Shown here: in pieces, positions 13 through 48,060 of the stretch
Numbering within the stretch: the first letter of the stretch is position 1
Layout of the letters: every line of letters begins with the position of its first letter
From: Alphaproteobacteria bacterium
GTDB lineage: Bacteria; Pseudomonadota; Alphaproteobacteria; Rs-D84
Direction: 5' to 3'
DNA: 64,000 nucleotides
NCBI GenBank assembly: GCA_017463185.1
Contig: JAFTPS010000014.1
Span: 154,546-218,545 of the forward strand
Notes under the pieces: model-generated
Databases searched by the model: none
Seen by the model: only the letters and a program-made list of their open reading frames with translations
Told to the model about the DNA's origin: nothing
Program-made: the position numbers and the translations under genes

Positions 13-1239
13 CTAAAAAACGTATCTCAAAGACAAACCACCTGTGTGATTAACCACATCTGTATGTAATCTTAAATCATAATTTAGGCGTAAATTTATG
101 CCGCTAATATTATATTCAGCCCAAATGCCAAATTCTGCCCCCAGTGGTCGTTCTGTGTCTTCTATTTCAAAATTGTATTTATATCCCAATACATCTAAAT
201 CTACTTTATTGTCTGGTTGTGTAATATTATATTCAACAAATGCACGACCACCCAATACAAAATCACCAATCGCATGTTCATAACCCGCCCCTGCAACAAC
301 ACTATAAAAATCACTTTTGGATTTTTTTAAGTATTCACTGTTTTGATTTAATTCTATATTTGTGTATCTGATACCAATTTCTGGACTTAATCCGTATTCT
401 GTTTTATAACCCGCCATAACCGATGCAAACAAACCAGATACATCACCATTATTCAATTCACTATCTATATACTCATAATCTGCAAAGTTATACGCAACCA
501 GCCCATTTACATAGAATTTGCTCGGTTGCCATTTTGAATATAAAAATACACTGCCTGTATCAAATAATATATCAGACGGATTTATATCTATATCAACATT
601 TGAATAACTGTATCCCGCACCCATTAAAACACTATCTGACAACTGTAAATCCGCCCCCAGAATAACCCCCAGTCCATTTGTTGAATAATTGTATTTACCA
701 GACTTATTCATTGAATTAAGTAATGTTGTTCCCCATACAGAAAACTTATCATCATTAAACCCTATATTACCAAAAACAGAATTATAAATATCAATATTAT
801 GTTGTTTTACAATATTTCTTGAAATGCCAATAACCGATAAATCCGTCAATTCAGAAACATTATTCGCAACCCAATTATCAAATTGATTTTTTAAGTCTGC
901 TACATTCTGTAAAACAAATTCATCCCCCTCTAAACCTATTTCCTTATCAAAATTTTCAAACGTTATACCAGAATAATAAAATTCACTTGGACTATAAGGT
1001 GCCTGATATTCATAACCGTTTCCATCACCCAACCATTCTGTTTGAGTTAATACTAAACTATGTTCAAACGGTTTATAATAATAGTAAATATCTGAAATTT
1101 GTGTTAATTGTCCAGCCGCAGCATATGCAGGGTCAATAACACTATACATATTACCATCATATGAAACCAACGTTAAATCCACTGCATGTGCAGAAATTGC
1201 ACAAAATATACCAACCAAACCAAATATTATCTTTTTCAT
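13..1239 (-). CDS. Outer-membrane beta-barrel protein (autotransporter/OMP-like), signal peptide
   Basis: N-terminal signal peptide MKKIIFGLVGIFCAISAHA. Gly/Tyr-rich amphipathic beta-strand pattern throughout and a C-terminal ...LSLRYVF ending in aromatic Phe, typical of OM beta-barrels. Preceded by the conserved structured leader (copy 1). Confidence 0.55.
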   Translation of the reverse strand: MKKIIFGLVGIFCAISAHAVDLTLVSYDGNMYSVIDPAYAAAGQLTQISDIYYYYKPFEHSLVLTQTEWLGDGNGYEYQAPYSPSEFYYSGITFENFDKEIGLEGDEFVLQNVADLKNQFDNWVANNVSELTDLSVIGISRNIVKQHNIDIYNSVFGNIGFNDDKFSVWGTTLLNSMNKSGKYNYSTNGLGVILGADLQLSDSVLMGAGYSYSNVDIDINPSDILFDTGSVFLYSKWQPSKFYVNGLVAYNFADYEYIDSELNNGDVSGLFASVMAGYKTEYGLSPEIGIRYTNIELNQNSEYLKKSKSDFYSVVAGAGYEHAIGDFVLGGRAFVEYNITQPDNKVDLDVLGYKYNFEIEDTERPLGAEFGIWAEYNISGINLRLNYDLRLHTDVVNHTGGLSLRYVF

Positions 1240-1490
1240 ACTACACCCTTTGTAAAAAAAACACCGCCAATAAAGGATATTGACGGTCGGGCGTTTCCAA
1301 AAATCATACTGTAAATGACTCCCATTGCGTTCAGGTTGCCCTTATTGTATTACAACGGGTGGCCCGACCAAAGGTCAGGCATAACGATGCGAATGCACCA
1401 TTTGCAAAAGTGGATAACGATGCATATCGCACCGTACAGTATGGGCTTTTGGAACCCGAACCCGCTAGTCCCCTATCGGATTCAATACTT
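1240..1490 (-). promoter_or_regulatory. Conserved structured 5' leader, copy 1 (terminator hairpin plus U8 abutting the RBS; upstream complementary antiterminator segment)
   Basis: In RNA orientation the leader reads ...GGGUUCGGG...CCUGACC..GGUCGGGCC...UAUGAUUU..GCCCGACCGUCAAUAUCCUUUAUUGGCGGUGUUUUUUUU-ACAAAGGG-N7-AUG. GGUCGGGC is complementary to GCCCGACC, which overlaps the terminator stem. The same architecture and motifs recur at 9328-9595 and 16493-16715. Confidence 0.55.
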
Positions 1491-1534
1491 ATAATAACAG
1501 TAAATACCTATAAATGCAAAAAATAAAAAAACGA

Positions 1535-2188
1535 CTAAATTGTTTCATCAACAAGCTTAGATATAAAATCTACAAAATCACTGGAAAATTTTATATCCAA
1601 ATTTTCATTACAAGAGATTAAATTTTTAATATTTTCTATATTTTGGAAATCTAGCCAACATTCATCACCTGTTTTACATGGGATAATCCTATCAGCCTCA
1701 CCTTTATAAAAGGCAGCAACCATAGGATTAATAAAATGATTATTTTGTTCACAAAAATCCTGCCACAACATAACAACATCGCCTCCATGACACATAGATA
1801 AAAAATCTTCACCATTCATGTAATTAAAACATAATTTTACGGGCAAATTAGCAACCCTTAAACCACGAGGCAAATTTACAAGAGCACGATTTATTTCTTG
1901 CTGACACATTTCTTTTATTTCTTCTAAAGATAAGTTATTATATTTTCTCTTAAATAGATCTACATCTAACCAAATACACAGCTCATCAAAATCACCTTTT
2001 ACAGATTTTAAAGCATCCTTTATTCTTGATATATAATTACTTACTGTTATACCACCACATAAATTACTAGACATTATAGTAACAATTTGCTTATCTGTAT
2101 ATTCTCTAAAAAACTTTTTCAATACTTTTATATACCTTTCTTCGCTTCCACCCTCACAAACCACCAAAATATATTTATATACACACAT
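1535..2188 (-). CDS. RloB/TOPRIM-like small protein (AbiLii / DUF4276-like partner of an ABC-type ATPase)
   Basis: N-terminal motif ILVVCEGGSEERYIK matches the RloB/OLD-TOPRIM (v)EGxxE signature. 217 aa; its start overlaps or abuts the upstream ATPase gene (2188 vs 2198). The gene is very AT-rich compared with its neighbours. Confidence 0.55.
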   Translation of the reverse strand: MCVYKYILVVCEGGSEERYIKVLKKFFREYTDKQIVTIMSSNLCGGITVSNYISRIKDALKSVKGDFDELCIWLDVDLFKRKYNNLSLEEIKEMCQQEINRALVNLPRGLRVANLPVKLCFNYMNGEDFLSMCHGGDVVMLWQDFCEQNNHFINPMVAAFYKGEADRIIPCKTGDECWLDFQNIENIKNLISCNENLDIKFSSDFVDFISKLVDETI

Positions 2189-2197
2189 GTCAAACCC

Positions 2198-3541
2198 CTA
2201 ATCCAAAATAATAGGCTGCCCCCTATACATCCCAGAAACATACCTATCTCTGAAATTAACCTCATTCCTTTTTTCTATAGAAGATAATCTAACCAAGACA
2301 GAACCGTTTTTTTTGTTTTTATTAACAAAGGCAAATTCATCTGTTTTATAAATCTTATTTTCTAAAATATCAGTTGTATGCAAAGTAGCTATTAGCTGCG
2401 CTCCATTCTTATTCAAATTTTTATATTTAAACCTTTTAATTAAACCTTCTAAAACTTTTGGATGTATAGAACGATCCATTTCATCTATTATAATCAAAAC
2501 ACCTTTTTCAACTGCCCCTAATATTAAACCAGCCAATTTAAATATTTCTTGAGTACCAACGGATAATTCATTATGAAAATTAAAAGGAACATCTTTTCCT
2601 GTATCATCTTCTAAATAAGGAATAATATCATCAACATAAACCTTGTCTTCATCAAAATTTTTTATAAAATCAAACGGAATTTCAACATTCATCAAACTCT
2701 CTTGAGAATACTCTTTATATTTATGCTCAAAACGTTTAACATCTACATCAAACATCTGAATAAACTTTGATATTTTATCCAAACTAACACATATATCTTC
2801 ATCCTTATCAGAATCAGCTAAATATCTAATAGAAGAAAATGCTCTTAAACTATCTTTTGCTGAAATTATTTTTATATTATTAGAAATATAATAAAAAACA
2901 TCCGATAACCTACTATCTAAGTTAGGAAATTGCCAAACAAATTTTTCTAAAAAAGTATTTTTTTGATAATCTTGTCCATCCTTACCACGAACAATAGCAG
3001 CAGTTTCGTATATTTTATCTAACAAAACATAATCAAAACCATCACAGTCAATATTATCAAAATAAGTTTTTTGATTTTCTATTTTGTATATAGATATATT
3101 ATTAGTTAAATCAATTAATTCTTCATAAACAATGGAATTCTCATCAAAAGCCAAAATATAACTATACTTACGTGAATTAACAAAAAATTCTATACTAAAA
3201 CACGTTGGTTCTTTTATAAAACGCAATTTGTTTGGTTGATACGAAGAAAAAACCAAACCATCTACTACAATCTCACGAAAAACTTTTATCGCCTTAACTA
3301 TATTACTTTTACCACTAGCATTAGGACCATATATACATTCCACAGGAACAACCCTGTCAGCAATTTTTTTTGTTGGTTCCAATGCATAAATTACATCTTT
3401 CTCAACCAATCTTTTTTGGCCAAAAGACATATCCAACGTCAAATCAACAATGGATTTAAAATTTTTTATATTTAATCTATACAACATGTTTTTTACCTTA
3501 GGCGAGCATATTATACCATAAAAAAGAAAAAAATTCAACAA
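2198..3541 (-). CDS. AAA_21/ABC-type ATPase (AbiLi / RloA / PARIS AriA-like defense ATPase)
   Basis: Walker A GPNASGKSN near the N-terminus. A long helical middle region, then Walker B/D-loop LIIIDEMDRSIHP and an H-loop-like ATLHT near the C-terminus; this split ABC ATPase architecture is typical of the AAA_15/21 family. Forms an operon with the TOPRIM-like gene. Confidence 0.65.
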   Translation of the reverse strand: MLNFFLFYGIICSPKVKNMLYRLNIKNFKSIVDLTLDMSFGQKRLVEKDVIYALEPTKKIADRVVPVECIYGPNASGKSNIVKAIKVFREIVVDGLVFSSYQPNKLRFIKEPTCFSIEFFVNSRKYSYILAFDENSIVYEELIDLTNNISIYKIENQKTYFDNIDCDGFDYVLLDKIYETAAIVRGKDGQDYQKNTFLEKFVWQFPNLDSRLSDVFYYISNNIKIISAKDSLRAFSSIRYLADSDKDEDICVSLDKISKFIQMFDVDVKRFEHKYKEYSQESLMNVEIPFDFIKNFDEDKVYVDDIIPYLEDDTGKDVPFNFHNELSVGTQEIFKLAGLILGAVEKGVLIIIDEMDRSIHPKVLEGLIKRFKYKNLNKNGAQLIATLHTTDILENKIYKTDEFAFVNKNKKNGSVLVRLSSIEKRNEVNFRDRYVSGMYRGQPIILD

Positions 3542-3630
3542 TAAACAACTTTTTTGTTTATATTATAAAAAAACAAACACAACAAACACAAAAACACATA
3601 CAATAATATTATTATAAACAAAAAAATTGT

Positions 3631-4803
3631 TTATAATACCACAAACCCCAGCATTTTATCTGTGGCGGTTTGCATAGAATCACGAATTGGGTCAACGGTC
3701 AGGCGACTATAAACCTGTGTTGCGCTGGTGGATTTATGGCCAAGTGATTTACCAATAACCGGCAAACTGGCACCCGATATTGCCTGCCACGACCCCATTG
3801 TGCGACGCAGGTCATGAATCCGCATATCTGTGATGTTTGCCGCCTTTAACAAAGATTGCCACGGACGTTTCGGGTCTTCCAGATGTCCACTGGCACTTTT
3901 ACTACTCGGCAATACCCAACCTTTTTTCTTGCCTTGATTGATTTTTAACAGCAATTCACGCAACTGATTCACCATTGGAATCTGCAACGGTTGCCCACCT
4001 TTGGAATCAGGCACATATATCAACCCCGACGTAAAATCAACATGTTCCCAGCGCATAGTCAGCACATTATTCCGCCGCATCCCAGTCATCAGCGATATCA
4101 TCACATAGTTTTTGAACACATCGTTTTTACATTCCGCCAAGGCCGTCCAGAACCTTTTTAATTCATCACCATTCAAGAATCTGTCCCGACTTTTTTCTGT
4201 AAATTTACGAATTCCGCCGGCCGGATTACCACGTAACCCCATTAAGCCCTTTTTCACTGCAATCACATACATATGCTTAATCAACGACAACACCCGATTG
4301 GCCGTATATGGACTGTGTGTTTTACAAGTCTCCGCATGCAGGCGTTCAATCTCGTCCGCTTTGATACTTAACAACTTGCGATTATGAAATTGATTCAACC
4401 GGTGCTTGAACACACTGTCATCATTTACAACCGAATGTTGCTTTTTATAGATTGTGGAATATTCGGGTTTATAGATATTTTCATAAAACTGGCGCAGGGT
4501 CATATCATTCAGATTTTCCCGTCTTTGAATACTGGGGTCTGTGCCATTAGTCGCCATTTCTTTTAAGCTATGCGCCTGCCGCCGTGCATCACACAGTTTA
4601 ATCTGCCCCACACGCCCGATTTTTATACGCTTTGGTGTGCCTTGGAATTTCATATAGGCATAATAAGTCTTTGCCCCGCCATAGGTCACAATAACACACA
4701 GACCATCATGACTGCCCGTGTCATAATAAACCGCCTGCCCCGATGCAGGAACGGCTAAATTTTCCAACGCCCGTTCTGTAAAATTGATACGATTTGACGA
4801 CAT
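3631..4803 (-). CDS. int: Tyrosine site-specific integrase (P4-type)
   Basis: 390 aa. C-terminal catalytic residues R..HDLRRT..HKSTSATQVYSRL (R-H-R-Y), with an N-terminal arm-binding region. The gene directly abuts the Bro-N gene and lies about 1 kb from a tRNA 3'-end fragment. Confidence 0.85.
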   Translation of the reverse strand: MSSNRINFTERALENLAVPASGQAVYYDTGSHDGLCVIVTYGGAKTYYAYMKFQGTPKRIKIGRVGQIKLCDARRQAHSLKEMATNGTDPSIQRRENLNDMTLRQFYENIYKPEYSTIYKKQHSVVNDDSVFKHRLNQFHNRKLLSIKADEIERLHAETCKTHSPYTANRVLSLIKHMYVIAVKKGLMGLRGNPAGGIRKFTEKSRDRFLNGDELKRFWTALAECKNDVFKNYVMISLMTGMRRNNVLTMRWEHVDFTSGLIYVPDSKGGQPLQIPMVNQLRELLLKINQGKKKGWVLPSSKSASGHLEDPKRPWQSLLKAANITDMRIHDLRRTMGSWQAISGASLPVIGKSLGHKSTSATQVYSRLTVDPIRDSMQTATDKMLGFVVL

Positions 4804-5819: not shown

Positions 5820-5889
5820 GTTTTAATAAAAAATGCCCCTAATCCGGGGTGTTTTTTATTAAACCAAAATTATTTTATCCCAATCAAAA

Positions 5890-5914
5890 AATCACCCAAA
5901 TGGGTGATTTTTTA
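5890..5914. terminator. Bidirectional intrinsic terminator (tcaccc-aaa-tgggtga flanked by T/A runs)
   Basis: Perfect 7-bp stem followed by a T-run, immediately downstream of the lipoprotein operon end. Confidence 0.5.
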
Positions 5915-6931
5915 TCATTTTGATATATCAGATATCAATATTTCCATCAATTCATCTGACACTTTTTTTACCAATGCATTTTCAACTGTATTACACGATG
6001 CGCCAGATTCATAATGAATTGACTTTGAAACAGAATCAGTGGACACAATTTCCATTGTTGCAGTTTCTATAAGTTTATAGGAAACAGTCAATTTAGCATC
6101 TGTTTTTTGAACTTTTTCGCCTGTCAATTGAATAGTTTTATCTGTACGATTGATATTAAATCTTTCAATTCTACCAACCAACAGATAATCAGCTATTTCC
6201 AATTGTTTTAATTTATTTAAATTTTCTCGTTTTGCTATATCATCATTCAGTAATCCTAATTCTTTTGCTTGTTTATCAAAATTACTTCTGTCGACAACGG
6301 TCAATTTTTTTGACCTAGAGATATCCTTTTCCCACGCTGTTATTAAATCAGCATCTGTTAAACAATCCCATTTTTTCTTGCCTTCAAACCCTGTTATCAC
6401 CACACTATATTTTGATTTTTTTACCAAATCTGGTGAAACATAGTCATCTGTGACAAATACTTTTGCTTCAATCTCGACTGTATATTTTCCTTTTTTTTCT
6501 GATACAGATTTTACAGAATATCCCTCTATTTTTCCTTGATATTTTTGGTTGATATTTCTTTCTTCTATGCGCAAAGATTCATCAATTTTTCCACCTTTGT
6601 AATCTACAAAAACATCTTCCTTATAATCTGCTGAAACCTGTTGTTTATCATCATCAAACCAACCATCCGTAATTGATTTAAACCAAGATTTCTTTTCAAC
6701 CTTTGCTTTTATTTCACGTGTATCTTCCAGATGATAATCAGCAGAAACTATTTTCGCACTGTCTGCACCACCAGACACCACAGAAGTCTGTCTTATAGCA
6801 TTATCAATCGCATCAATAGTAGCTTCATATTCTGATTTTCCGTATCCCGTTGCACCTACATTTTGAATTTTTGCATTTGCATAATTTATAACACCGCAAA
6901 ACATTAAAAATACAATGAAAAATTTTTTCAT
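5915..6931 (-). CDS. Secreted protein, possibly CsgG/LpoB-fold lipoprotein-operon component
   Basis: Signal peptide MKKFFIVFLMFCGVINYANA (start taken at the internal Met). C-terminal ...KYSVVITGFEG..ADYLLVGRIERFNI.. resembles CsgG-family motifs. Last gene of the four-gene operon. Confidence 0.4.
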   Translation of the reverse strand: MKKFFIVFLMFCGVINYANAKIQNVGATGYGKSEYEATIDAIDNAIRQTSVVSGGADSAKIVSADYHLEDTREIKAKVEKKSWFKSITDGWFDDDKQQVSADYKEDVFVDYKGGKIDESLRIEERNINQKYQGKIEGYSVKSVSEKKGKYTVEIEAKVFVTDDYVSPDLVKKSKYSVVITGFEGKKKWDCLTDADLITAWEKDISRSKKLTVVDRSNFDKQAKELGLLNDDIAKRENLNKLKQLEIADYLLVGRIERFNINRTDKTIQLTGEKVQKTDAKLTVSYKLIETATMEIVSTDSVSKSIHYESGASCNTVENALVKKVSDELMEILISDISK

Positions 6932-6991
6932 TTTTACATCCTTTTTTGTAAAAAAACACCCAAACAAAATTTGAGTGTTTTTTATATTCGT

Positions 6992-7594
6992 TTACCAGGT
7001 TTGAGTATCTTTATCCACCAACTTTTTAATAATCTTATAATCTGACCATAATTCAGTACCATCTGATACATCCGTCAAAGATAAATCAAAAGTATATTCA
7101 ATCAGTTTATTTCTGCGATCAACATTTGTATTTTTTTGAGAAATACGCCCTGTCAGTGATAAATCAAATGCTTTTACTGTATTATTTTTCTTTACTGTTG
7201 ATTTATCAACCAACGAAGATTCGGCCAATTCTCTGGACGCAGCAACATCTGAATTTCTGTTTGAACCAAAAGAATTAGTTGCTTTTACATTTCCACTGCG
7301 TCTGACTTCTTTGGTTATAAACATTGTTAAATCGCGCATATTCAGCCGTTGTTGTGTATCATTTACAATTTCCGAAACCTTCATAATATATGGCTGACCA
7401 TTTGGTTTTGGGCTGGCCAATTCATGTGCCAGCATATCATTTAACATACTTTGGGCAGCAACTTCAAAATCATTACTTGATAATGTTGCAGATACAAATT
7501 CCTGGGATTCTGAATCAGTCAATACTTTTGGACTAGAAGAACATCCCACCCCCATAAAAGCTATTGCAATCATTAAATAAAAAACTTTTTTCAT
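6992..7594 (-). CDS. Lipoprotein (DUF799/LpoB-like?)
   Basis: Lipobox MGVGC|SSS. 200 aa. C-terminal pattern LSLTGRISQ...FDLSLTDVSDGTELWS is reminiscent of LpoB/CsgG-like folds. The family assignment is tentative. Confidence 0.4.
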   Translation of the reverse strand: MKKVFYLMIAIAFMGVGCSSSPKVLTDSESQEFVSATLSSNDFEVAAQSMLNDMLAHELASPKPNGQPYIMKVSEIVNDTQQRLNMRDLTMFITKEVRRSGNVKATNSFGSNRNSDVAASRELAESSLVDKSTVKKNNTVKAFDLSLTGRISQKNTNVDRRNKLIEYTFDLSLTDVSDGTELWSDYKIIKKLVDKDTQTW

Positions 7595-7607
7595 TTTTTT
7601 CCTTTTA

Positions 7608-7979
7608 TTATTGTTCTATTTTTGTATTTGATACATAAACTTTATAATCCACAGCCTTGCTTGATGGCGCGACAATGGTCCAATAAAAAGGCAATCCTTT
7701 TTTAACTGTCTGTTTTACATATTTAGACAACAAAGTATTTATTTTTATTCCACTATCATTAAACCAAGCTGTTGAATAATACAAATCTGTATCATTATAC
7801 ACTTCACCAGAAACGGTTATTTTCATATTTCCATTTTCTACATATTCAACCCCATTGATACGAATATTTTTTATACAATCGTCTGGCAGGCTATCTATAT
7901 GTATATGTTCAGGATTCAGATTTTGGGTGGTCGTACAACCACCCAAAACAATTCCTAAAATACAAATAATTTTTTTCAT
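7608..7979 (-). CDS. Small lipoprotein (DUF4810-like?)
   Basis: Lipobox LGGC|TTT. 123 aa. Sits in the operon between two other lipoproteins. Confidence 0.4.
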   Translation of the reverse strand: MKKIICILGIVLGGCTTTQNLNPEHIHIDSLPDDCIKNIRINGVEYVENGNMKITVSGEVYNDTDLYYSTAWFNDSGIKINTLLSKYVKQTVKKGLPFYWTIVAPSSKAVDYKVYVSNTKIEQ

Positions 7980-7992
7980 AATTTACCTGTAT

Positions 7993-9327
7993 TTAGTTCA
8001 GTTTACCAACAACTATTGCTGGCACTGCATTTGCCGTTGGGATACGAACAAATACAATTGCATTTTCAATACCTTCTGGGATAACAACTTCTAAGCCATC
8101 ATTGATAAATAATTTTCTATCAACAGGCATATTGACACGTGCCGTTTGAATTTCTGTTGGTATAGAATCCCAAGATCTTAAATCCCACGGTTTCTTTACA
8201 CTCATAACCCCGGTTACTGCCGCCGCTGTTGCTGCTGCCCTAAACGGAGTATCCTTAGCCGCTTCATTTGCTGCATATCCTGCTGCAGTTGCGGCGGCAA
8301 TTTTTCCAATTTCAAACGCTACTGAACTTATAATATTACGTGTCTTATATTTGTTATAATCAGTTTTAACAACAGAATCAACATTTACTAATTGTTGTGT
8401 TGTAACCGTTGTATCGCCAGATTTAACACTTATTGTTTCTAATGCTTTGGTTCCTGGGAATACATCAGGGATAGTCAGTTCAATACCCGCTTCAACCCCT
8501 AATGCTGACAATGGTTGTGTCAAAGGTTTCAAAACATCTGGTACCAATGAACGTTTTTGCAATTGTCCAACCATACCGTTTTCAAAAACAACATAAACAC
8601 TTCCTTTTTTCAAACCAGCAACATCTGATTTAACAAAAGTATTTTTTGGTGCAAATTTTGCAACTCTGCTCATACCATTGTTCGCATTACTATAATCACC
8701 GCTGGCACCATCATACAACGCCATCAACCAAGTAGTATATGGATTTGCATAATCTTTCATTGCGGTAATATCATCATCCAAAGACGATACATCTTTACTA
8801 ATGGAATCAGTAATAGAATCCAAACTTGGCACATTGATACCAAATTCTTTTAATATTTTTTGATCTTCTTTAAATTTCTCTTGTTCTTTTGCAATTTCAT
8901 CACTATTTTCGCTTATATTTTCTTTTTGTAAATCATATACCTGATTAAACACTTGCTTTGCATAAGAATCATCATTTGCAATCAGTCCAATTCCTTCATA
9001 AGTCTTGAACATAATCTTTTCATAACTTTTGATTTTATATGATGAATCTTCATCGGTTTCACCCTTTAATATAGAATTTACCGGTGAAAAACATGTTTCA
9101 AGTCCTTCTGCATTATTTGCCCATAAATATGCATTACCACACTGCAATCCACCCAAATAAACATTATTCGGTTCTTGATTTAATACAGTTGCCTTAGCCA
9201 TCTTTTCTGCTGCAACTTCGTAATTACCATTTGAAAAATCCTCGCGATATTGTTTGGAAATTTCTGCGTAATTACCATTACAGGCCGCCAATACCAGACA
9301 TCCTGTCAATAAAGTTATTTTTTTCAT
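7993..9327 (-). CDS. Lipoprotein, first gene of the four-gene envelope operon
   Basis: Start taken at MKKITLLTGCLVLAAC (lipobox LAAC). Ala/Thr-rich C-terminus. Immediately preceded by leader copy 2. Confidence 0.45.
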   Translation of the reverse strand: MKKITLLTGCLVLAACNGNYAEISKQYREDFSNGNYEVAAEKMAKATVLNQEPNNVYLGGLQCGNAYLWANNAEGLETCFSPVNSILKGETDEDSSYKIKSYEKIMFKTYEGIGLIANDDSYAKQVFNQVYDLQKENISENSDEIAKEQEKFKEDQKILKEFGINVPSLDSITDSISKDVSSLDDDITAMKDYANPYTTWLMALYDGASGDYSNANNGMSRVAKFAPKNTFVKSDVAGLKKGSVYVVFENGMVGQLQKRSLVPDVLKPLTQPLSALGVEAGIELTIPDVFPGTKALETISVKSGDTTVTTQQLVNVDSVVKTDYNKYKTRNIISSVAFEIGKIAAATAAGYAANEAAKDTPFRAAATAAAVTGVMSVKKPWDLRSWDSIPTEIQTARVNMPVDRKLFINDGLEVVIPEGIENAIVFVRIPTANAVPAIVVGKLN

Positions 9328-9595
9328 TGCACATCCCTTTGTTAAAAAATAAACCGTCAATGGAATTTGACGGTCGGGGAGTTAGCAAATCATATATGTC
9401 AATGATTCTGTCGCTTTTAGGTTTCCCCTGTTGTATAACGAACAGCCCCCCGACTGATTTACAGTCAGGGATAAATAACGACACAAAACCACAGGAATGA
9501 CATCGGATAACGATGCCATACGCAATTTTGCACCGGACATATAAAGGCTTGCTACAGCCCCGAACCCAATTCCCATTGGATTCATTTCCTAGTTT
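9328..9595 (-). promoter_or_regulatory. Conserved structured 5' leader, copy 2
   Basis: RNA orientation: GGGUUCGGGG...CCCUGAC..CAGUCGGGGGGCUGUUCGUUAUACAACAGG...UAUGAUUU...CCCCGACCGUCAAAUUCCAUUGACGGUUUAUUUUUU-AACAAAGGG-N8-AUG. Terminator-like hairpin plus U-tract. GUCGGGG is complementary to CCCCGAC. Confidence 0.55.
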
Positions 9596-9620
9596 AACAT
9601 AAAATATATAAAAAAGGCAA

Positions 9621-9650
9621 AAACAAAAAACGCCGCCAATCGGCGGGTTT
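9621..9650. terminator. Intrinsic terminator (cgccgccaatcggcggg flanked by A- and T-runs)
   Basis: GC stem-loop with a poly-A upstream and poly-T downstream. Lies downstream of rpmJ on the minus strand. Confidence 0.5.
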
Positions 9651-10401: not shown

Positions 10402-12828
10402 ATGAACACTATAAACGGATTTTTTGATTACTTTGCGGGCAGTGGATTTCCAATCACTTTGACTATTTTGGTGATGGTTGTTTTGTTTGTTTTTATTGTT
10501 TTAATGATGTTTGTACCAACTTTGACGCGTCGTATATTTCCGCATTTTGGATATGCCAAGTACTCAAATTACCTGCCGTTTGGAACGGTTTATAATGATA
10601 ATTCTATGTCATTGACCGATGGTGGATTGGTGCGCGCATACCGCGTGGCTGGTGTTCAAACCAGTATGCAGGATGACGCAACCAAAGAAAAATTTTTAGA
10701 ATTACGGGCGCAGTTATTTAATCAGATACGCGACCCGAATGTTGTTTTGCGTTTTTATATGGTGCGGGACGCGGCCGACGAAAATACGGATTATGAATTT
10801 GATCAACCGACTTTGCAAAGTATTTATAATAAATGGCGTGGCCAGGGATTAAAAATTTTCTTGAACAGTTATTATATAACCATATCTGTTTATGGACCAA
10901 ACGCGCGCGAAAGGTTAAATCAATATGGTAATTACATAGAATCAATATTAGCGGCGTATCGTCCACAAGTTTTACGTAATGACAGTTCTGATAATATGGC
11001 ACGATTTTTTGGTCGTATATTATCCCCTATTTCAAAGCCTGCACCTATGCGTGCTGATAATAATATCGCAAATCTGACAACGGTTGATGATATTGAATTT
11101 TTGCGTGATGGTATTGTACGTTATATCAGTGGTGGCAATCAATCCTTTGCAGCGTGTGTTTCTTTCAAGATATCACCGGATTATTTGGACGAAGAATTCT
11201 TTGATACTGTATCAACCATCCAGACAGAAATGATTTCTATGAATGGTTTTCGTATTATGGGTAATGCTGATATAGAAAGTACTATCCGTCAACGCCGCAG
11301 TACGGCTGATGAAAACACAACATCAACCGAGGAACAAATATCATCAGCCCAAAGTGCAATGGATGAAAATATATCTGGTAATCAAAGTCTGATAAATTAT
11401 TATCCTTTATTTGTAATATTTGGTGCAACCCGCGAAGATTTACAAAAATCAGTTGCAGAATTTAAAAAAATAGCCGCACAATTTGGTATTTCACCTATTG
11501 TTGAAACATTTGCATCCCAGGTTTCTTGGTTTGCACAAATTCCGGGATTTGATACATTTCCGCGCAGTTTTAAATTATTATCCCGCGCGGCGGCGATTTC
11601 AATTCCTATGTCAACCCAGCCACGTGGTGTTGAAAATTCTGATTGGGGGCCTGGCCCATTGGTTGTTTTTCCAACCGCCCAGGGAACACCGTACCAGTTC
11701 CAATTCCACGTATCGGACAAGCCTGCCGCCGTGGCACATACACTTACAATTGGTCCAACCGGTGGTGGTAAAACAACCTTGTTCAGTTTTCTGATAGCGC
11801 AATCTTTACGTCATCCAAAACTAAAAGCGTTTTTCTTTGATCGTAACAAAGGTGCGGAAATATTCACATTGGCAGTTGGTGGAAAATATATCACTATGCA
11901 GGGCAAAGAAAAAAATACAGACCCCATGGCACAAAATTTCCTGACGCGTTTAAACCCACTTAAAATGCCAGATACTGCGGCAAATCGCGCATTTTTACGT
12001 CGCTGGTTTGCGATTATATCGGGCCAGAATGATGCGGCATCGGCCGATGAAATCGCACGCGCGGTATCTGTGAATTTTGATTATTTGTCCGACCAGGATA
12101 AATTGTTAAAAAATTTATGGGAAAGTTGTTTTTCTTCATCTGGTAATATGCGCCCTGCCCTGAAAAAATGGATTGACCCGTTGCAGTACGGTGATATGTT
12201 TAATGATACATCTGATACATTAGATTTACAGGCGCGTCTTACAACATTTGATTTTACCGATATTTTACAAGATGAAACATTGGCCCCGGCGGTAATATCG
12301 TATATATTGCACAGAATAAATAATATCACTGTATCGGGTGGTAATCCTTCGTTGATTATGATTGACGAAACCGCTCCTATGTTGGAAAACAAAATGTTCC
12401 GTGACAGTTTTATAGCCGGCCTGCAAGAGGGGCGTAAAAATCGCCAGGCATACATGGCTGCATTCCAGCGCGCAAATGTTCTGGATAAGTTAGGAATTGG
12501 TGATGTGGTTCGTGGCCAAGCCCAGACAGTCTTGTTTTTCCGCAACCCAGCGGCAGACAGCAACGATTATGCACATTGGAATTTAAATCCATTAGAAATG
12601 GCGTTTATCCAAGGCAAGGCTTATCCTAACTTAAAACGTGCTTTGTTATTATCACGTCCTGTCACAGGTGAATCTGTGATTTTAAACACAGAATTGGGTG
12701 GATTGGGCAATTTATTGCGTTTATTTGAATCTGGGCGTTCGTCTGTATTACTGGCCGAAGAATTATATAAAATGTACGGCAATAATTTTGTAAATGAATA
12801 TCTAAAAAAACAGGGCGCGGCCGAGTAA
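10402..12828 (+). CDS. virB4: Type IV secretion ATPase VirB4/CagE/TrbE family
   Basis: 808 aa with N-terminal TM helices, Walker A GPTGGGKTT and Walker B IMIDETAPML. Overall architecture matches VirB4. Confidence 0.85.
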   Translation: MNTINGFFDYFAGSGFPITLTILVMVVLFVFIVLMMFVPTLTRRIFPHFGYAKYSNYLPFGTVYNDNSMSLTDGGLVRAYRVAGVQTSMQDDATKEKFLELRAQLFNQIRDPNVVLRFYMVRDAADENTDYEFDQPTLQSIYNKWRGQGLKIFLNSYYITISVYGPNARERLNQYGNYIESILAAYRPQVLRNDSSDNMARFFGRILSPISKPAPMRADNNIANLTTVDDIEFLRDGIVRYISGGNQSFAACVSFKISPDYLDEEFFDTVSTIQTEMISMNGFRIMGNADIESTIRQRRSTADENTTSTEEQISSAQSAMDENISGNQSLINYYPLFVIFGATREDLQKSVAEFKKIAAQFGISPIVETFASQVSWFAQIPGFDTFPRSFKLLSRAAAISIPMSTQPRGVENSDWGPGPLVVFPTAQGTPYQFQFHVSDKPAAVAHTLTIGPTGGGKTTLFSFLIAQSLRHPKLKAFFFDRNKGAEIFTLAVGGKYITMQGKEKNTDPMAQNFLTRLNPLKMPDTAANRAFLRRWFAIISGQNDAASADEIARAVSVNFDYLSDQDKLLKNLWESCFSSSGNMRPALKKWIDPLQYGDMFNDTSDTLDLQARLTTFDFTDILQDETLAPAVISYILHRINNITVSGGNPSLIMIDETAPMLENKMFRDSFIAGLQEGRKNRQAYMAAFQRANVLDKLGIGDVVRGQAQTVLFFRNPAADSNDYAHWNLNPLEMAFIQGKAYPNLKRALLLSRPVTGESVILNTELGGLGNLLRLFESGRSSVLLAEELYKMYGNNFVNEYLKKQGAAE

Positions 12829-12832
12829 ATCC

Positions 12833-13441
12833 TTGAAAAAAATAATTGCTATTTTTTGTACTTTGTTTTGTTGCCGGGCAATTGCCAATGATTGTCTGGC
12901 GTACAAATTAAATCCGCGAATTTTTATTGATAGCCCCGATTGGCAACGGCGCGTGGTACAACCCCTGGCACCAATGGATTTGTGGCACGGAAATGTGGTT
13001 GCAACATTGGTTGATAATTATGATATTATTGCCAACAGTACACCGGTTGAAAATGGTTTTTGTGTTGCGCTTAAAACGGTAAATGCAACCGTCGGATACA
13101 GTGATTTTTTAGTAAAAATAGATATGAGACACGCACCGGAATCGTGTTCTTATAATGCGGTTTTATCACACGAAGATGCACATATTCGGACATATCTGAA
13201 TGTTATAAATGATTTTAAGGGTGAATTGCAAAAATCTGTATTTTCCGCGGCTGATTCTATAATGCCTATATTTGTCCGTAATAAATCAGATTTAGATGCG
13301 GCAATTGATATGATGAATAATGAATTGCAATCACATCCAGATTTAATTTTAATAAAACAAAAAATTCACGCGGCTCAGGAAATTCGTAATAAACGTCTGG
13401 ATATGAATGATGATGGCGCAGAACTTAAAAAGTGTATCTAA
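12833..13441 (+). CDS. Secreted protein of unknown function, translationally coupled to virB4 (possible T4SS periplasmic component)
   Basis: TTG start 4 nt after the virB4 stop. Signal peptide MKKIIAIFCTLFCCRAIA. 202 aa with no recognisable catalytic motifs. Confidence 0.4.
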   Translation: MKKIIAIFCTLFCCRAIANDCLAYKLNPRIFIDSPDWQRRVVQPLAPMDLWHGNVVATLVDNYDIIANSTPVENGFCVALKTVNATVGYSDFLVKIDMRHAPESCSYNAVLSHEDAHIRTYLNVINDFKGELQKSVFSAADSIMPIFVRNKSDLDAAIDMMNNELQSHPDLILIKQKIHAAQEIRNKRLDMNDDGAELKKCI

Positions 13442-14042
13442 TTCCAATTTTTAATTCACTTACTTGTCTAAAAAAATCGTGTCGTACTGGCGCATACATA
13501 AACATAGTTCGTATCGCGGCTTGCTTATTTATATTATAAATCGCACCAATTCCAATTCGTGGTGCGGCACGATGGGTTGATACGGTTGTATCAATTCCAT
13601 CATATACACCGTTTTCCATTTCGCGATAATATGCATCTGTTTCAAAAATAAAGTTTGCAACACCAACAGATATTATGGCTTCCAGCCCGCGAAAGATATT
13701 ATAATATGTCTGAATATTCGCACCATAAATTTGATAACTTATTTGTGTTTTTAATTCCAGCCAATTGTATTCGTTGGTATAGCGGCTTTTTTCTGTATTT
13801 GTATCAAACGAATACCCATAAAAAATTTCCGCACCAAAACATTTGTTAAATCGTGCACCTGCATTGACTGTCACCGCGCCATATTTATCAGATATGTGAA
13901 CTGGATTTTCATTATAATCAACAAAAGCCAAACTTAAATCCACACCTACATATGGTTTAAAAGATTCTACTAATGGTTGTCGTATATTGGCATAACTTGA
14001 CACAGGTAATATAATAAAAAGTAAAAATAAAATGCGTATCAT
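13425..14042 (-). CDS. Small outer-membrane beta-barrel protein (OmpW/Omp25/OmpA-like 8-strand barrel)
   Basis: Signal peptide, alternating hydrophobic strands, and a C-terminal IGIRYTF. Confidence 0.55.
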   Translation of the reverse strand: MIRILFLLFIILPVSSYANIRQPLVESFKPYVGVDLSLAFVDYNENPVHISDKYGAVTVNAGARFNKCFGAEIFYGYSFDTNTEKSRYTNEYNWLELKTQISYQIYGANIQTYYNIFRGLEAIISVGVANFIFETDAYYREMENGVYDGIDTTVSTHRAAPRIGIGAIYNINKQAAIRTMFMYAPVRHDFFRQVSELKIGIRYTF

Positions 14043-15882: not shown

Positions 15883-15914
15883 AAAAAAACACCGGTAATT
15901 GCCGGTGTTTTTGT
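15883..15914. terminator. Bidirectional intrinsic terminator (caccggtaattgccggtg)
   Basis: Perfect palindrome flanked by A- and T-runs, between the convergent ychF and OMP genes. Confidence 0.55.
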
Positions 15915-16492
15915 TAGAAACGATAACCAATACTGGTTGTTATGGCAAAACCAGATGTATCAACTGTATATTCATAACCGTTTACATCAGTTTCAAAATT
16001 CATAATTTGATATTCTAATCCACCCTTTATAGACAGATTATCATTGAAATTATATTTCACACCGGCGCCAATGCCATAGGCAACGGCTGTATCATCAAAG
16101 CTTAAACTTCCGTCATCATATTCCATATTTGCAAATCCTAATTCTGCTGAAATGTATGGTTGTGTTTTTCCGTCCAAGAATGGAACAATAGCTCTTAAAC
16201 TAACACCAAATATTTCTTCCGTTTCTGTTTCTGAAAATTCTGGTGCAATACCAATTTGAATACCGTCAAAATCAATGCCGACATATGCAGAACCATTACC
16301 GTTAAAAGCAGAAGAATCTGCTTCTGTAATTTTTGTTCCGTCTAATTCATATTCCGCAGATGTGTTTGAATACAAACTGATTCCATATTCAATAAAAAAT
16401 CGTGGGTTTAATTTATTTTGTTGAACACTTTCTTCTGCAAAAGAAGTCACCGGCAACAAAGCCAATGCGGCAATTATTGAAATTTTTTTCAT
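15914..16492 (-). CDS. Small outer-membrane beta-barrel protein (Omp25/OmpW-like)
   Basis: Signal peptide MKKISIIAALALLPVTSFA and a C-terminal ...TTSIGYRF. Preceded by leader copy 3. Confidence 0.6.
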   Translation of the reverse strand: MKKISIIAALALLPVTSFAEESVQQNKLNPRFFIEYGISLYSNTSAEYELDGTKITEADSSAFNGNGSAYVGIDFDGIQIGIAPEFSETETEEIFGVSLRAIVPFLDGKTQPYISAELGFANMEYDDGSLSFDDTAVAYGIGAGVKYNFNDNLSIKGGLEYQIMNFETDVNGYEYTVDTSGFAITTSIGYRF

Positions 16493-16715
16493 ATTTTCTC
16501 CCTTTGGTTAAAATTTAAACCGTCAGAAATGACGGTCGGGGTGGTTGATAAATCATAGTTTAGGAAATGACTCTGTTGTCTTTGGGAAAATCCCTGTTAT
16601 ATAACAAACAGCCCCCCGACCGTTATAGGTCAGGGATATTTCAGTGTGTAATAAACACTGCCTAAACTATTGGGTTATCACACCCCGAACCCACATCCCT
16701 GCAGGTTCATTAAAA
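16493..16715 (-). promoter_or_regulatory. Conserved structured 5' leader, copy 3
   Basis: RNA orientation: GGGUUCGGGG...CCCUGACC..GGUCGGGGGGCUGUUUGUUAUAUAACAGG..UAUGAUUU..CCCCGACCGUCAUUUCUGACGGUUUAAAUUUU-AACCAAAGGGAG-N4-AUG. Confidence 0.5.
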
Positions 16716-16803
16716 AGTATATATTAAATATCACTACTTTTCAACCCAAAGCAAAAATATATAAATAATTCATATAAATTAAAATTTCTCAGGAACACAA
16801 TAG

Positions 16804-16884
16804 ACCCCGGCCTGCGCCGGGGTGACGATTAGTTATTTGTATATAGATTTTAGACTCGTCATACCGGCGTAGGCCGGTATCCAC
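16804..16884. repeat. Two GC-rich REP-like palindromes upstream of the GIY-YIG gene (ccccggc-ctgc-gccgggg; ataccggc-gtag-gccggtat)
   Basis: GC-rich hairpins in an AT-rich context. Homologous hairpins flank the second GIY-YIG paralog at 63552-63577 and 63968-63997. Confidence 0.5.
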
Positions 16885-43686: not shown

Positions 43687-43880
43687 ACTCCAACCGCAAT
43701 GGTCGGAGTATTTAACACCTCTTCAGGTGCGCTCAAAGGGTTCTAAAGCCCCACACTGAAAAACCTCAGTGCCAGCACATTATATGATATATAAAATACA
43801 ATTTCAAATGCTTAGATAAATAAAAGTTTATCAGAGTGGTAAGTGTTTGCACTATAATGTGCGGCATTCGCCACACGCAT

Positions 43881-47983: not shown

Positions 47984-48060
47984 GTAAAATAATCAAAAGG
48001 GACGGCAGTTTCGTCCCTTTTAGTTTCTTGAATAATTTTATTATTCCTATTATAATTTAT

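Follow-up and report, generated by a model that had tools for sequence, protein, structure and literature searches.

A promoter-linked structured leader with two mutually exclusive folds, probably an RNA switch of surface-protein genes in gut Alphaproteobacteria

sRNA-Xcc1 (RF02221) is an RNA of ~88 nt from integron cassettes of Xanthomonas, also known from plasmids, phages and Xylella islands. The literature treats it as an sRNA that acts in trans rather than as a leader, and Rfam-based pipelines widely annotate it as a virulence sRNA of this kind; its transcript of ~88-100 nt, with the 5' end at P1, was mapped in X. campestris. The discrete ~88-nt transcript of Xanthomonas campestris has been reported (PMC2996969). 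The hosts of this RNA are mobile elements of Gamma- and Betaproteobacteria, and the genes downstream are of the toxin or phage type, namely, symE, genes of ORF6N-domain proteins and genes of the BRO family. Classical attenuators and ON-type riboswitch platforms (the trp leader, pbuE adenine) are based on alternating 1:2/2:3/3:4 pairing upstream of an ORF, and in the ON-type platforms P1 and the terminator have one strand, the 3' strand of P1, in common. The c-di-GMP-I/II and c-GAMP riboswitches are represented by multi-copy structured leaders before pili, adhesin and outer-membrane genes. Putative mobile promoters are homologous 5' regions located before non-homologous genes, within and across related genomes (Matus-Garcia et al., NAR 2012; PMC3488235).

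The element described here, a leader of ~230 nt preceding surface-protein genes of gut Alphaproteobacteria, has features in common with all of these systems. With sRNA-Xcc1 it shares a three-way junction with P1 of the form GUCGGGnG/CnCCCGAC, a P2 arm with the internal loop AUACAAnA, a small GC hairpin and an A-rich 3' side, a short P3 and a U-rich J3/1 ending in AA, as well as the position directly 5' of a co-oriented gene. In contrast to sRNA-Xcc1, the leader additionally contains a 5'-terminal hairpin (P0), a long-range (LR) helix, variable hairpins, a decoy (region 1) and a separate terminator, none of which is visible around the Pseudomonas copy of sRNA-Xcc1. Its promoter lies ~125-205 nt upstream of the 3' portion of the junction, with P0 and LR in between, unlike the P1 start of sRNA-Xcc1. 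Classical attenuators differ from the leader in having a leader peptide; the leader has a conserved AUG in varying frames, an overlap of 3-4 nt, an additional 20-bp long-range lock, a conserved promoter and many copies per genome. As in classical attenuators, its segments are predicted to pair alternately, 1:2 as a putative anti-antiterminator, 2:3 as antiterminator and 3:4 as terminator, and like ON-type platforms it shares the 3' strand of P1 with the terminator. Unlike putative mobile promoters, its conserved block consists mostly of a covarying RNA of ~230 nt and a terminator, and no mobilisation mechanism is evident. With the second-messenger riboswitches the analogy is one of regulon only, since the architecture differs and there is no Rfam match at a permissive E-value.

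Rfam scans at the gathering threshold, covering the window and 18 related loci, assigned the element to no family; permissive scans returned sRNA-Xcc1 alone, below threshold, and no ribozyme or riboswitch families. Copy 2 matched RF02221 along the entire model (positions 1-87) with 36.4 bits, the gathering threshold being 53 bits, while copies 1 and 3 gave no match at E<=5; as a positive control, the Pseudomonas plasmid copy of sRNA-Xcc1 scored 72.6 bits. Conversely, the covariance model of the element (R1) matched this bona fide sRNA-Xcc1 with 23.5 bits (E 1e-5), exactly over the junction. A BLAST search of plasmids with the Rfam consensus gave a single match. By these scores, the match between the junction core and sRNA-Xcc1 holds in both directions but stays below threshold. 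The earlier claim of an undescribed system needs qualification with respect to this junction core; a literature search for a published description of the leader in Enterousia found none. Because sRNA-Xcc1 is also located directly upstream of genes, it may itself be the core of a cis-acting leader module.

The window, i.e., the whole analysed stretch of 64,000 nt, contains five copies of the element, two of them belonging to a divergent subtype, type 2 (Table 1). A reading based on the sequence only had described three copies of ~220-270 nt; these copies are real, but the total is five in two subtypes, and the unit reaches upstream to the promoter. In every copy the order of parts is the same: sigma-70 promoter, 5'-terminal hairpin, structured leader, hairpin with U-tract, Shine-Dalgarno (SD) sequence and ORF. 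The motifs listed in that reading were all found on the minus strand. CCUGACC corresponds to region 1, GGUCGGG(G/C) to region 2, the hairpin CUGUU..AACAG to P2 (in copy 1 as a compensated variant), GGGUUCGGG to the 3' arm of the 5' hairpin with the G-run after it, and (C)CCCGACC to region 3, fused to the hairpin CCGUCA-loop-UGACGG with its U-tract; AAAGGG and ATG follow ~15 nt further on, and UAUGAUUU, containing the conserved AUG, is also present.

Table 1. Positions of the element copies, the parts of copy 1 and the adjacent genes in the window
Feature	Position	Strand	Description
Copy 1, whole unit	1254-1519	-	from -35 hexamer through U-tract
Copy 1, -35 hexamer	1514-1519	-	TTGCAT
Copy 1, -10 hexamer	1491-1496	-	TATTAT
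Copy 1, P0	1458-1483	-	5'-terminal hairpin GAAUCCG...CGGGUUC
Copy 1, LR helix 5' strand	1435-1457	-	GGGUUCCAAAAGCCCAUACUGUA; from MFE and duplex energies
Copy 1, variable hairpin domain	1385-1433	-	LR 5' strand to region 1
Copy 1, region 1	1373-1380	-	GCCUGACC; partner of region 2 in the 1:2 hairpin
Copy 1, region 2	1362-1369	-	GGUCGGGC; partner either region 1 or region 3
Copy 1, P2 arm	1321-1361	-	internal loop AAUACAAUA, small hairpin, A-rich 3' side
Copy 1, P3 hairpin	1303-1319	-	GUCAU-loop-AUGAU
Copy 1, LR helix 3' strand	1289-1313	-	P3 loop and 3' arm, J3/1, start of region 3
Copy 1, region 3	1285-1292	-	GCCCGACC; 3' strand of P1, last 3 nt also base of terminator stem
Copy 1, terminator-like hairpin	1254-1287	-	ACCGUCAAU...AUUGGCGGU and U8; independently called by terminator scan
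Copy 1, SD and downstream ATG	1237-1251	-	AAAGGGUG
Gene after copy 1	13-1239	-	408 aa, signal peptide, autotransporter beta-domain (PF03797, E 2.6e-14)
Copy 2, whole unit	9344-9599	-	extended -10 TGTTAAACT through U-tract; 115.6 bits, covariance model
Copy 2, SD and ATG	SD 9332-9340, ATG 9325-9327	-	
Upstream terminator	9631-9646		divides copy 2 from the preceding gene (terminator scan)
Operon after copy 2	5915-9327	-	444-aa lipoprotein, DUF1425 protein, LpoB, CsgG-like protein
Copy 3, whole unit	16510-16744	-	-35 TTGAAA (-10 TATACT) through U-tract; 96.3 bits
Copy 3, SD	16498-16505	-	
Gene after copy 3	15914-16492	-	192-aa OMP beta-barrel (Opacity/OprF-like)
Copy 4 (type 2)	43601-43807	-	31.9 bits, E 1.3e-6; promoter TTGAAA-17-TATAAT, then P0; regions 1, 2, 3 CUCCGACC, GGUUGGAG, CUCCAACC; P2 loop AAUAUAUUGAAUAA; terminator AACCGC..GCGGUU and U-tract
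ORF after copy 4	ATG 43561-43563		76 aa, without signal peptide
Copy 5 (type 2)	48028-48248	+	30.7 bits, E 2.8e-6; promoter TTGAAT-17-TATAAT, then P0; regions 1, 2, 3 CUCCUGACC, GGUCAGGAGG, CCUCCUGACC; terminator ACCACC..GGUGGU and U-tract
Gene after copy 5	ATG at 48262		protein N-terminus MKYLLTFVFGIFLATNAQA (signal peptide)

The motif CCCGACCGTCA occurs exactly three times in the window, once in each of copies 1-3; with one mismatch allowed there are five matches versus 0.54 expected in shuffled sequences, and 0 of 100 shuffles reached five. A covariance model derived from relatives gives copies 1-3 scores of 96-116 bits (E 1e-24 to 1e-29), and their folding z-scores relative to shuffles are -5.0, -7.5 and -6.7, respectively. 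The proposed conserved structured RNA family is real.

A pattern scan of a genome collection yielded 102 stretches, ~85 of which are true members, nearly all of them from metagenome-assembled genomes of gut or rumen Alphaproteobacteria ('Candidatus Enterousia' and relatives), which to our knowledge have never been cultured; ~19 pattern matches were discarded as chance matches within ORFs of unrelated phyla (Flavobacterium and others). The model R1 gave 92 matches in 630 kb of loci and five in the window, 97 in total, with reverse-strand scores of ~10 bits. In 94 of the 97, a co-oriented SD and ORF follow, with an element-to-ORF gap of 15-25 nt and the start codon at a median of 19.5 nt downstream; eight matches outside the selection by the search pattern have the identical layout. 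Many scattered copies outside 5' leaders would have indicated a MITE, but all five window copies and 94 of the 97 matches are in the leader position.

The genes downstream are unrelated to one another, as had been noted for copies 1-3, and encode mainly envelope proteins. A signal-peptide-like N-terminus is present in 78 of the 94 downstream ORFs (83%) compared with 29% of 469 background ORFs. Pfam domains of the downstream proteins are represented by Autotransporter (12), Chlam_PMP (7), OMP_b-brl (4), Opacity (2) and YadA_anchor (1), while ~15% of the associated genes, including small HTH-like ORFs, a glycosyltransferase and LicD, have no signal peptide.

The family promoter has the consensus TTGaat-N17-(tg)n-TAtAaT at a fixed distance, 4-10 nt upstream of P0; TAnnnT was found there in 72 of 79 members, and the promoter of copy 3 shows 10/12 matches. 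Transcription presumably starts at the foot of P0, as judged from the position of this predicted promoter, which puts the predicted 5' ends of copies 1-5 at a G near window positions 1483, 9583, 16708, 43771 and 48061. P0 is a 9-bp hairpin, usually with the GNRA tetraloop GGGA; it is present in 79 of 83 members, with 42 distinct stem sequences and the GGGA loop in 56. As in second-messenger riboswitches, such a GNRA tetraloop on a peripheral hairpin hints at tertiary folding; for docking of the GGGA loop on the P2 internal loop as a tetraloop receptor, a crude co-loss test was not significant.

At the other end of the leader, on the sense strand between promoter and ORF, a GC-rich hairpin is followed immediately by a U-tract, as in an attenuator. 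The hairpins of copies 1-3 were called terminator-like by the terminator scan, in line with the sequence-only reading. The stem is paired in 96.7% of cases among 84 sequences and covaries in member L102 and in type 2, where it has changed (CCACC/GGUGG, as in copy 5) with the 3-4 nt overlap and the U-tract retained; the U-tract is conserved throughout the alignment. From this conservation the hairpin presumably acts as a terminator, with predicted 3' ends in the U-tracts at about 1254-1261, 9344-9350 and 16510-16516 for copies 1-3. At column pair 238:261, half of the members have GACGGU rather than GGCGGU, and an RfaH ops-like reading of the GGCGGU arm was rejected on these grounds. In member L085, the start codon is located inside the hairpin and the U-tract is absent; this layout points to translational rather than transcriptional control in that member.

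Between P0 and the terminator, two folds are predicted. Fold A, the minimum-free-energy (MFE) fold, consists of the long-range helix, the 1:2 hairpin and the full terminator: the segment after P0 pairs over ~20 bp with the P3 loop, the 3' arm of P3, J3/1 and the C-run of region 3, and region 2 (GGUCGGGG) is sequestered by region 1 (CCCUGACC). Fold B is the three-way junction P1/P2/P3, closed by region 2 and region 3 (CnCCCCGACC), in which P1 borrows 3-4 nt of the terminator base, and region 1 and the 5' segment are freed. The strongly exclusive pairings are the LR helix and the 1:2 hairpin on one side and P1 and P3 on the other, an alternative that the sequence-only reading had missed.

Evidence for fold B comes from covariation. 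Among its cells, 92% are paired, and its covariation score is 0.373 versus 0.142 in shuffles (reached by 0 of 500), with slid controls at <=0.09. In 84 relatives, double-sided changes were found in all eight P2 pairs and in three inner P1 pairs, and covariation also links region 2 to region 3 (CCCCGACC), a segment that adjoins the terminator and partly overlaps it. P3 is 97.6% paired but invariant. As P3 and some of region 3 and of the terminator were fixed by the search pattern, their lack of variation in the large alignment is partly built in; type 2 copies retain P3 with a different sequence. In type 2, as seen in copy 5, regions 1, 2 and 3 have changed jointly, region 2 reading AGGAGG, a perfect SD-like sequence, with CCUCC in regions 1 and 3, and the P1/terminator overlap of just 3-4 nt is kept in both subtypes despite the sequence differences. 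Fold A is represented by an LR duplex with a cognate energy of -23.9 versus -12.5 kcal/mol for non-cognate pairs, 98% of sequences ranking their own partner in the best 5%, and by the 1:2 hairpin, paired in 88% of cells, with columns 97:128 and 104:121 covarying. On the evidence of the alignment, the element thus has two covariation-supported, incompatible folds. P1 covariation and P3 retention are hard to explain without a second functional conformation, because both are incompatible with the ground state; two conserved, mutually exclusive shapes therefore make an RNA switch probable. The ~20-bp lock of this natural RNA, in which both incompatible folds are backed by covariation, spans ~150 nt and would be useful for studies of co-transcriptional folding.

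Thermodynamically, fold A dominates. In the MFE folds of 51 full leaders, the partner of region 2 is region 1 in 42 cases and never region 3; region 3 pairs with the 5' segment in 41 and with the SD region in eight; the latter pairing was also found in the MFE fold of copy 1. Forcing the P1 core costs on average +13.5 kcal/mol, and 43 of the 51 leaders nevertheless keep a predicted terminator. The terminator and an upstream antiterminator had been proposed to be mutually exclusive. Of this, the covarying 2:3 pairing and its overlap with the terminator are confirmed, but the overlap is short and the terminator survives forced P1; for the latter reason antitermination does not follow from equilibrium folding and requires the assumption of kinetic control or a strong effector.

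The element as a whole, composed of promoter, ~230-nt leader and terminator hairpin, is probably an RNA switch gating the cell-surface proteome. More specifically, with confidence slightly better than even, it is interpreted as a self-contained expression unit in which a four-segment transcription attenuator (1:2 / 2:3 / 3:4) is combined with an additional long-range lock. The two folds would interconvert in vivo. Termination would be the default state, resulting in a leader RNA of ~230 nt; a trans-acting signal stabilising the junction, or occupying region 1 or the 5' segment, would lead to read-through and thus to expression of all surface-protein genes bearing the leader. The putative trans partner may be a protein, or an sRNA that contains either GGUCAGGG or a sequence complementary to GGGUUCGGGG. 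A leader peptide was rejected, as the spacing from the conserved AUG to region 3 varies by 8-10 nt and the frame is not kept; in copy 2, the reading from this AUG is AUG AUU UGC UAA, with a stop after three codons, and type 2 copies have no shared leader ORF. Should the leader prove to be a switch, its regulon of surface and secreted proteins could be defined from sequence alone, which would give a direct handle on host-facing surface remodelling in the uncultured 'Candidatus Enterousia' and relatives.

It is possible, and is proposed tentatively, that the leader represents a new class of RNA sensors with sRNA-Xcc1 as its minimal relative. The junction would bind a small molecule, a second messenger or a protein or RNA factor and, via the long-range lock, would switch together dozens of surface-protein genes, including those of autotransporters, Pmp-like adhesins, porins and lipoproteins. 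Were this so, it would be a global RNA-based regulator of the surface proteome in uncultured, genome-reduced gut Alphaproteobacteria. The specific suggestion of a ligand-sensing riboswitch was not supported: the conserved unpaired nucleotides are located mainly in the P2 internal loop, whereas the sequence of J3/1 is variable and covaries with the 5' segment, which is unlike typical metabolite aptamers and speaks rather against a small-molecule pocket in the junction.

An unlikely reading is that of a constitutive cassette, i.e., a 'mobile promoter' that has spread together with a stabilising 5' UTR and does no switching. The strong promoter, P0 and LR would give high, nuclease-resistant expression of abundant surface proteins, and the hairpin would serve as a leaky terminator, as an insulator or to stabilise the mRNA. 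Hairpins at the 5' terminus, as in the ompA 5' UTR, are classic mRNA stabilisers; the near-consensus promoter is conserved together with the leader, one fold dominates the thermodynamics, and homologous promoter regions before non-homologous genes have already been described (PMC3488235). The five copies in 64 kb suggest dozens per genome, and a high copy number suggests a general expression cassette rather than a specific sensor. Such a cassette hardly explains inner P1 covariation and the P3 kept in type 2, both incompatible with the ground-state fold, nor the P1/terminator overlap preserved in both subtypes, and a U-tract hairpin between a strong promoter and its sole gene would be counter-productive unless regulated. 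Even in the case of no switching, a promoter-plus-UTR cassette reused over a whole functional gene class would be striking.

It is quite unlikely that the elements are independent sRNA genes, long relatives of sRNA-Xcc1, whose ~230-nt RNA acts in trans or as a sponge, the gene downstream being expressed merely by incidental read-through. The reciprocal, sub-threshold match to RF02221, the discrete transcript of sRNA-Xcc1 in X. campestris (PMC2996969) and the promoter and terminator that delimit a discrete RNA in each element agree with such genes. However, in 94 of the 97 copies an ORF of the same orientation follows, and the element stops 15-25 nt short of its SD; this gap is too small for a second promoter, so that the gene depends on the leader transcript. 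The enrichment of one functional class downstream favours a cis role, and sRNA-Xcc1, too, is located directly 5' of genes.

Translational control, in which the C-runs of regions 1 and 3 (CCCC or CCUCC) act as anti-SD sequences masking a G-rich SD depending on the fold, with the hairpin as a structural spacer, is very unlikely for the family. Downstream SDs are GGGG-rich in 47% of cases versus 11% in the background, for which the start sites are crude; the pairing of region 3 with the SD in the minority of MFE folds and in copy 1, the SD-like region 2 with its CCUCC partners in type 2, and the start codon of L085 within the hairpin agree with this type of control. On the other hand, region 3 pairs with the 5' segment, not the SD, in 41 of 51 MFE folds, and both subtypes retain the U-tract despite differing stems, a hallmark of intrinsic terminators.

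A DNA-level dispersed repeat (MITE, REP, attC-like site or invertible promoter segment), intergenic by chance, is largely refuted and scarcely credible. In its favour, the element recurs in multiple copies, contains many inverted repeats and is GC-rich within an AT-rich genome, and sRNA-Xcc1 occurs in integron cassettes. Against it, 94 of 97 copies have the same place and direction with respect to the start codon, the similarity stops at the -35 and the SD, neither terminal inverted repeats nor target duplications are visible, and compensatory evolution of internal stems is not expected of transposon ends. A phage or mobile origin was rejected, the scan of viral contigs for the element having given 0 matches, as was an invertible promoter, since the inverted repeats lie downstream of the promoter and inversion would not uncouple it. 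An integron attC site was likewise rejected: the window copies are 5-27 kb apart with no cassette array and have their own promoters. The element is an RNA rather than an attC site, because many of its pairs are strand-specific G-U pairs, which would be C-A mismatches on the opposite strand (GU at 196:217 in 62 sequences, UG at 238:261 in 50 and UG at 100:125 in 36).

A real, widespread and previously undescribed family of structured leaders was identified; its members come with a promoter and a terminator and are dedicated to genes of envelope and surface proteins. Three stretches singled out by the sequence-only reading (copies 1–3, type 1, minus strand) align over ~230 nt, contain all the motifs listed there and end ~15 nt before AAAGGG and the ATG; the genes following them are, as had been stated, mutually unrelated. 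The 11-mer CCCGACCGTCA has one exact occurrence in each copy and, with one mismatch, 5 matches in the window versus 0.54 expected. All three stretches fold far better than dinucleotide shuffles (z-scores of -5.0, -7.5 and -6.7). With filters off, R1, the covariance model of the element core (135 positions and 31 pairs, from region 1 to the U-tract), gave 96–116 bits for these copies and matched two divergent copies, termed type 2. The order of parts in the latter is the same as in type 1: each has its own promoter (TTGAAA or TTGAAT, 17 nt, TATAAT), followed by the hairpin P0, long-range complementarity, the alternately pairing regions 1, 2 and 3, helices P2 and P3, a terminator with a U-tract, and an SD. 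Five copies in 64 kb suggest that there are many per genome. A further OMP beta-barrel gene, encoding 205 aa and located ~50 nt from the preceding SufBD-like ORF, has no leader of this family 5' of it; thus, the element is not present on every envelope gene in this genome.

Features of the leader family and of neighbouring elements
Feature	Sequence	Positions	Strand	Description
P0 hairpin, copy 1	window	1458-1483	-	
P0 hairpin, copy 2	window	9562-9583	-	
P0 hairpin, copy 3	window	16687-16708	-	
Gene after copy 1	window	13-1239		autotransporter beta-domain protein
Operon after copy 2	window	5915-9327		444-aa lipoprotein, then DUF1425, LpoB, CsgG-like protein
Gene after copy 3	window	15914-16492		OMP beta-barrel
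R1 match, divergent type 2 copy	window	43600-43719	-	~31 bits, E ~1e-6
R1 match, divergent type 2 copy	window	48135-48248	+	~31 bits, E ~1e-6
OMP beta-barrel gene lacking the leader	window	13425-14042		
Mobile or defence island	window	1535-4803		RloB-like protein, AAA_21 (AbiEii-type) ATPase, tyrosine integrase with Arm DNA-binding domain
AT-rich hairpin	window	5823-5954		
VirB4/TrbE-like ATPase	window	10402-12828		
Double-hairpin repeat	window	16780-16870		
GIY-YIG ORF	window	16940-17254		
Variant leader	L085	7355-7534		
Bona fide sRNA-Xcc1	L109, P. aeruginosa plasmid NZ_CP093017.1	1498-1580		72.6 bits

Relatives were collected by scanning one genome per species for the pattern TATGATTT-N6-12-CCCGACCGTCA. 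Among the 102 stretches obtained, ~85 contained the whole element; the remainder, located inside ORFs of unrelated phyla, were rejected as chance matches. The hosts are almost all metagenome-assembled genomes of gut or rumen Alphaproteobacteria (Candidatus Enterousia, 'uncultured Rickettsiales' and RGIG bins), and the window itself comes from a metagenome-assembled contig. Contig CAZJGX010000008.1, binned as 'uncultured Muribaculaceae' and probably mis-binned, has three copies (loci L012 and L049), two of type 1 and one of type 2.

In the MAFFT consensus of 83 full-length copies, conservation begins with a sigma-70 promoter, TTGaat-N17-(tg)n-TAtAaT, which ends a few nt 5' of P0 and from which we infer a transcription start site. 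The motif TAnnnT is located 4–10 nt 5' of P0 in 72 of 79 copies, TTG occupies the -35 position in 58 copies, and an extended -10 TG is present in 30. P0 was found in 79 of the 83 copies; its stem occurs in 42 different sequences, and its loop is GGGA, a GNRA tetraloop, in 56 of these 79 members. A vague resemblance to a tetraloop receptor is seen in the P2 internal loop (UAUAYAACAGG / CCnAAAG); co-loss of this loop and the P0 GGGA tetraloop was not significant in a crude test.

On 630 kb of related loci, R1 produced 92 matches, 8 of which (4 of each type) were outside the search-pattern selection; all 8 have the same layout, with a signal-peptide ORF next in 7. A co-oriented SD and ORF follow 94 of 97 R1 matches, the start codon being located a median of 19.5 nt past the match (interquartile range 15–25). 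A signal-peptide-like N-terminus was found in 78 of the 94 downstream ORFs; among 469 background ORFs taken from these loci the share was 29%, both signal-peptide calls and background start sites being heuristic. Pfam domains of 90 downstream proteins are represented by Autotransporter (12), Chlam_PMP (7), OMP_b-brl (4) and Opacity (2), as well as YadA_anchor, LicD, glycosyltransferases and PAP2; the majority of these proteins have no Pfam domain. A MITE or dispersed repeat, the alternative named at the outset as a refutation of a regulatory leader, is unsupported, since the layout before ORFs is fixed in this one 5' context and a scan of viral contigs gave 0 copies.

Two folds of the leader were recognized. 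In fold B, a three-way junction, region 2 (GGUCGGGGnG) and region 3 (CnCCCCGACC) pair as P1, the helix that closes around P2 and P3. In the alignment of 84 sequences, 92% of the cells are paired, and the covariation score is 0.373 versus 0.142 for shuffles (reached by 0 of 500) and at most 0.09 for slid partners; shuffle controls overstate significance because the sequences are mutually related, the slid-partner and cognate/non-cognate tests being less affected. Two-sided changes occur in all 8 P2 pairs and in the 3 inner P1 pairs, for example, GGGGAG/CUCCCC, GGGGUG/CACCCC, GGGAAG/CUUCCC and GGGC/GCCC. No variation is seen in P3 of type 1, in part owing to the search pattern; type 2 keeps P3 with different sequences (CAAUU/AAUUG, CUAU/AUAG). 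The large alignment was collected by a 19-nt exact pattern, so UAUGAUUU and CCCGACCGUCA are invariant by construction; only the 8 extra R1 matches and type 2 are free of this bias.

In fold A, a long-range helix is formed by the 30 nt that follow P0 and the stretch from the P3 loop through J3/1, the strand between P3 and P1, to the C-run of region 3. In an alignment-free test, this duplex has -23.9 kcal/mol for cognate versus -12.5 kcal/mol for non-cognate partners, and its own partner is among the best 5% in 98% of sequences. Region 2 is held by region 1 (CCCYGACC) in a 1:2 hairpin, which is 88% paired and shows covariation at column pairs 97:128 and 104:121. The ground state predicted by folding is fold A: among 51 full leaders, 42 have region 2 paired with region 1 and 0 have it paired with region 3, region 3 is paired with the 5' segment in 41, and 48 have an intact terminator. 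Type 2 has regions 1, 2 and 3 altered jointly (CUCCUGACC / GGUCAGGAGG / CCUCCUGACC), which is hard to explain unless region 2 uses both partners. Judging from its frequent G-U pairs, the structure is located on the sense strand of the downstream gene; R1 scores on the reverse strand are ~10 bits. The two alternative folds, both supported by covariation, point to a switch.

The hairpin and U-tract of copies 1–3 were independently called by a simple terminator scan. Across the family the stem is 96.7% paired, and it covaries in locus L102 (GCCA/UGGC) and in type 2 (CCACC/GGUGG, AACCGC/GCGGUU), the U-tract being retained each time. Mutual exclusivity of the terminator and the helix formed by region 2 had been proposed. 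The last 3–4 nt of the P1 3' strand do double as basal nucleotides of the terminator stem in both subtypes, but the coupling is weaker than described: with the P1 core forced (+13.5 kcal/mol on average), the terminator was still predicted in 43 of 51 leaders. The robust exclusivity is that of the long-range helix and 1:2 hairpin versus P1 and P3. GGGG-rich SDs precede 47% of associated genes versus 11% of crude background starts, and some predicted folds have region 3 paired with the SD; an additional translational component is therefore possible. In the variant leader of locus L085, the 'terminator' hairpin is enlarged, with the start codon of the signal-peptide ORF in its loop and a coding 3' arm (UUGACGG), and a clean U-tract is absent; it looks like a variant shifted towards translational control.

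The unit may operate as a four-segment attenuator (1:2, 2:3, 3:4) that has a long-range lock in addition and is transcribed from a strong constitutive promoter. In the default state, the distal segment would be captured on emergence by the 5' segment already waiting for it, and region 2 would remain on region 1, so that the terminator would form and the ~230-nt leader RNA would be released. A putative signal would stabilise the junction, or occupy region 1 or the 5' segment; region 2 would then invade region 3, weakening the terminator base and allowing read-through into the surface-protein gene. All copies conserve region 1 and the 5' segment, so one factor could act on all of them. No conserved leader ORF was found. 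The variability of J3/1 and its covariation with the 5' segment speak against a classical junction pocket; an effector that is a protein or an RNA is somewhat favoured, or else recognition of the P2 internal loop, which is conserved.

No Rfam family was detected at threshold on the window or 18 related loci, and the sole Rfam similarity is to sRNA-Xcc1 (RF02221). Membership in that family was rejected by the Rfam criterion, copy 2 scoring 36.4 bits over the full 87-position model against a gathering score of 53. Conversely, R1 matched the bona fide sRNA-Xcc1 of a Pseudomonas aeruginosa plasmid (23.5 bits, E 1e-5) exactly over the junction. Common to both are P1 (GUCGGGnG/CnCCCGAC), the P2 internal loop AUACAAnA with a nested hairpin and an A-rich return, a short P3 and a U-rich J3/1, whereas P0, the long-range lock, the decoy region 1 and a separate terminator belong to the leader family only, none being found around the Pseudomonas copy. 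The leader core is distantly related to sRNA-Xcc1, and the family has a distinct host range and regulon. sRNA-Xcc1 was described as a ~88-nt trans-acting sRNA (PMC2996969); it is located directly 5' of symE in Xanthomonas integron cassettes and of an ORF6N-domain protein gene in APSE phages. The plasmid copy lies ~38 nt 5' of a co-oriented BRO-family gene, beside a mer operon. Given these contexts, sRNA-Xcc1 may itself be a cis-acting leader, beyond a trans-acting sRNA alone. 'Promoter propagation' (PMC3488235) presents the same pattern of homologous 5' regions ahead of unrelated genes, but does not include RNA structure. In a text search of the literature, no account of a leader of this kind was found for Enterousia.

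A second GC-rich double-hairpin repeat, unrelated to the leader and REP- or MITE-like in appearance, recurs in these genomes (CCCCTTCACATTGTGAAGGGGTGGCACACGAAGTGTGGCGGGGTAG in loci). In the window it is represented by GACCCCGGCCTGCGCCGGGGTGACG and CATACCGGCGTAGGCCGGTATCC and adjoins a GIY-YIG ORF; it is located between the leader terminator and the ORF in loci L016, L028 and L073 and 5' of the promoter in L014. Directly 5' of copy 1 is a small island of mobile or defence genes. A perfect AT-rich hairpin of 12 bp (AAAAAATCACCCAAATGGGTGATTTTTT), which separates convergent or adjacent genes and has several weak sub-threshold Rfam matches (csRNA, Phe_leader, RNAI), is most likely merely a bidirectional terminator.
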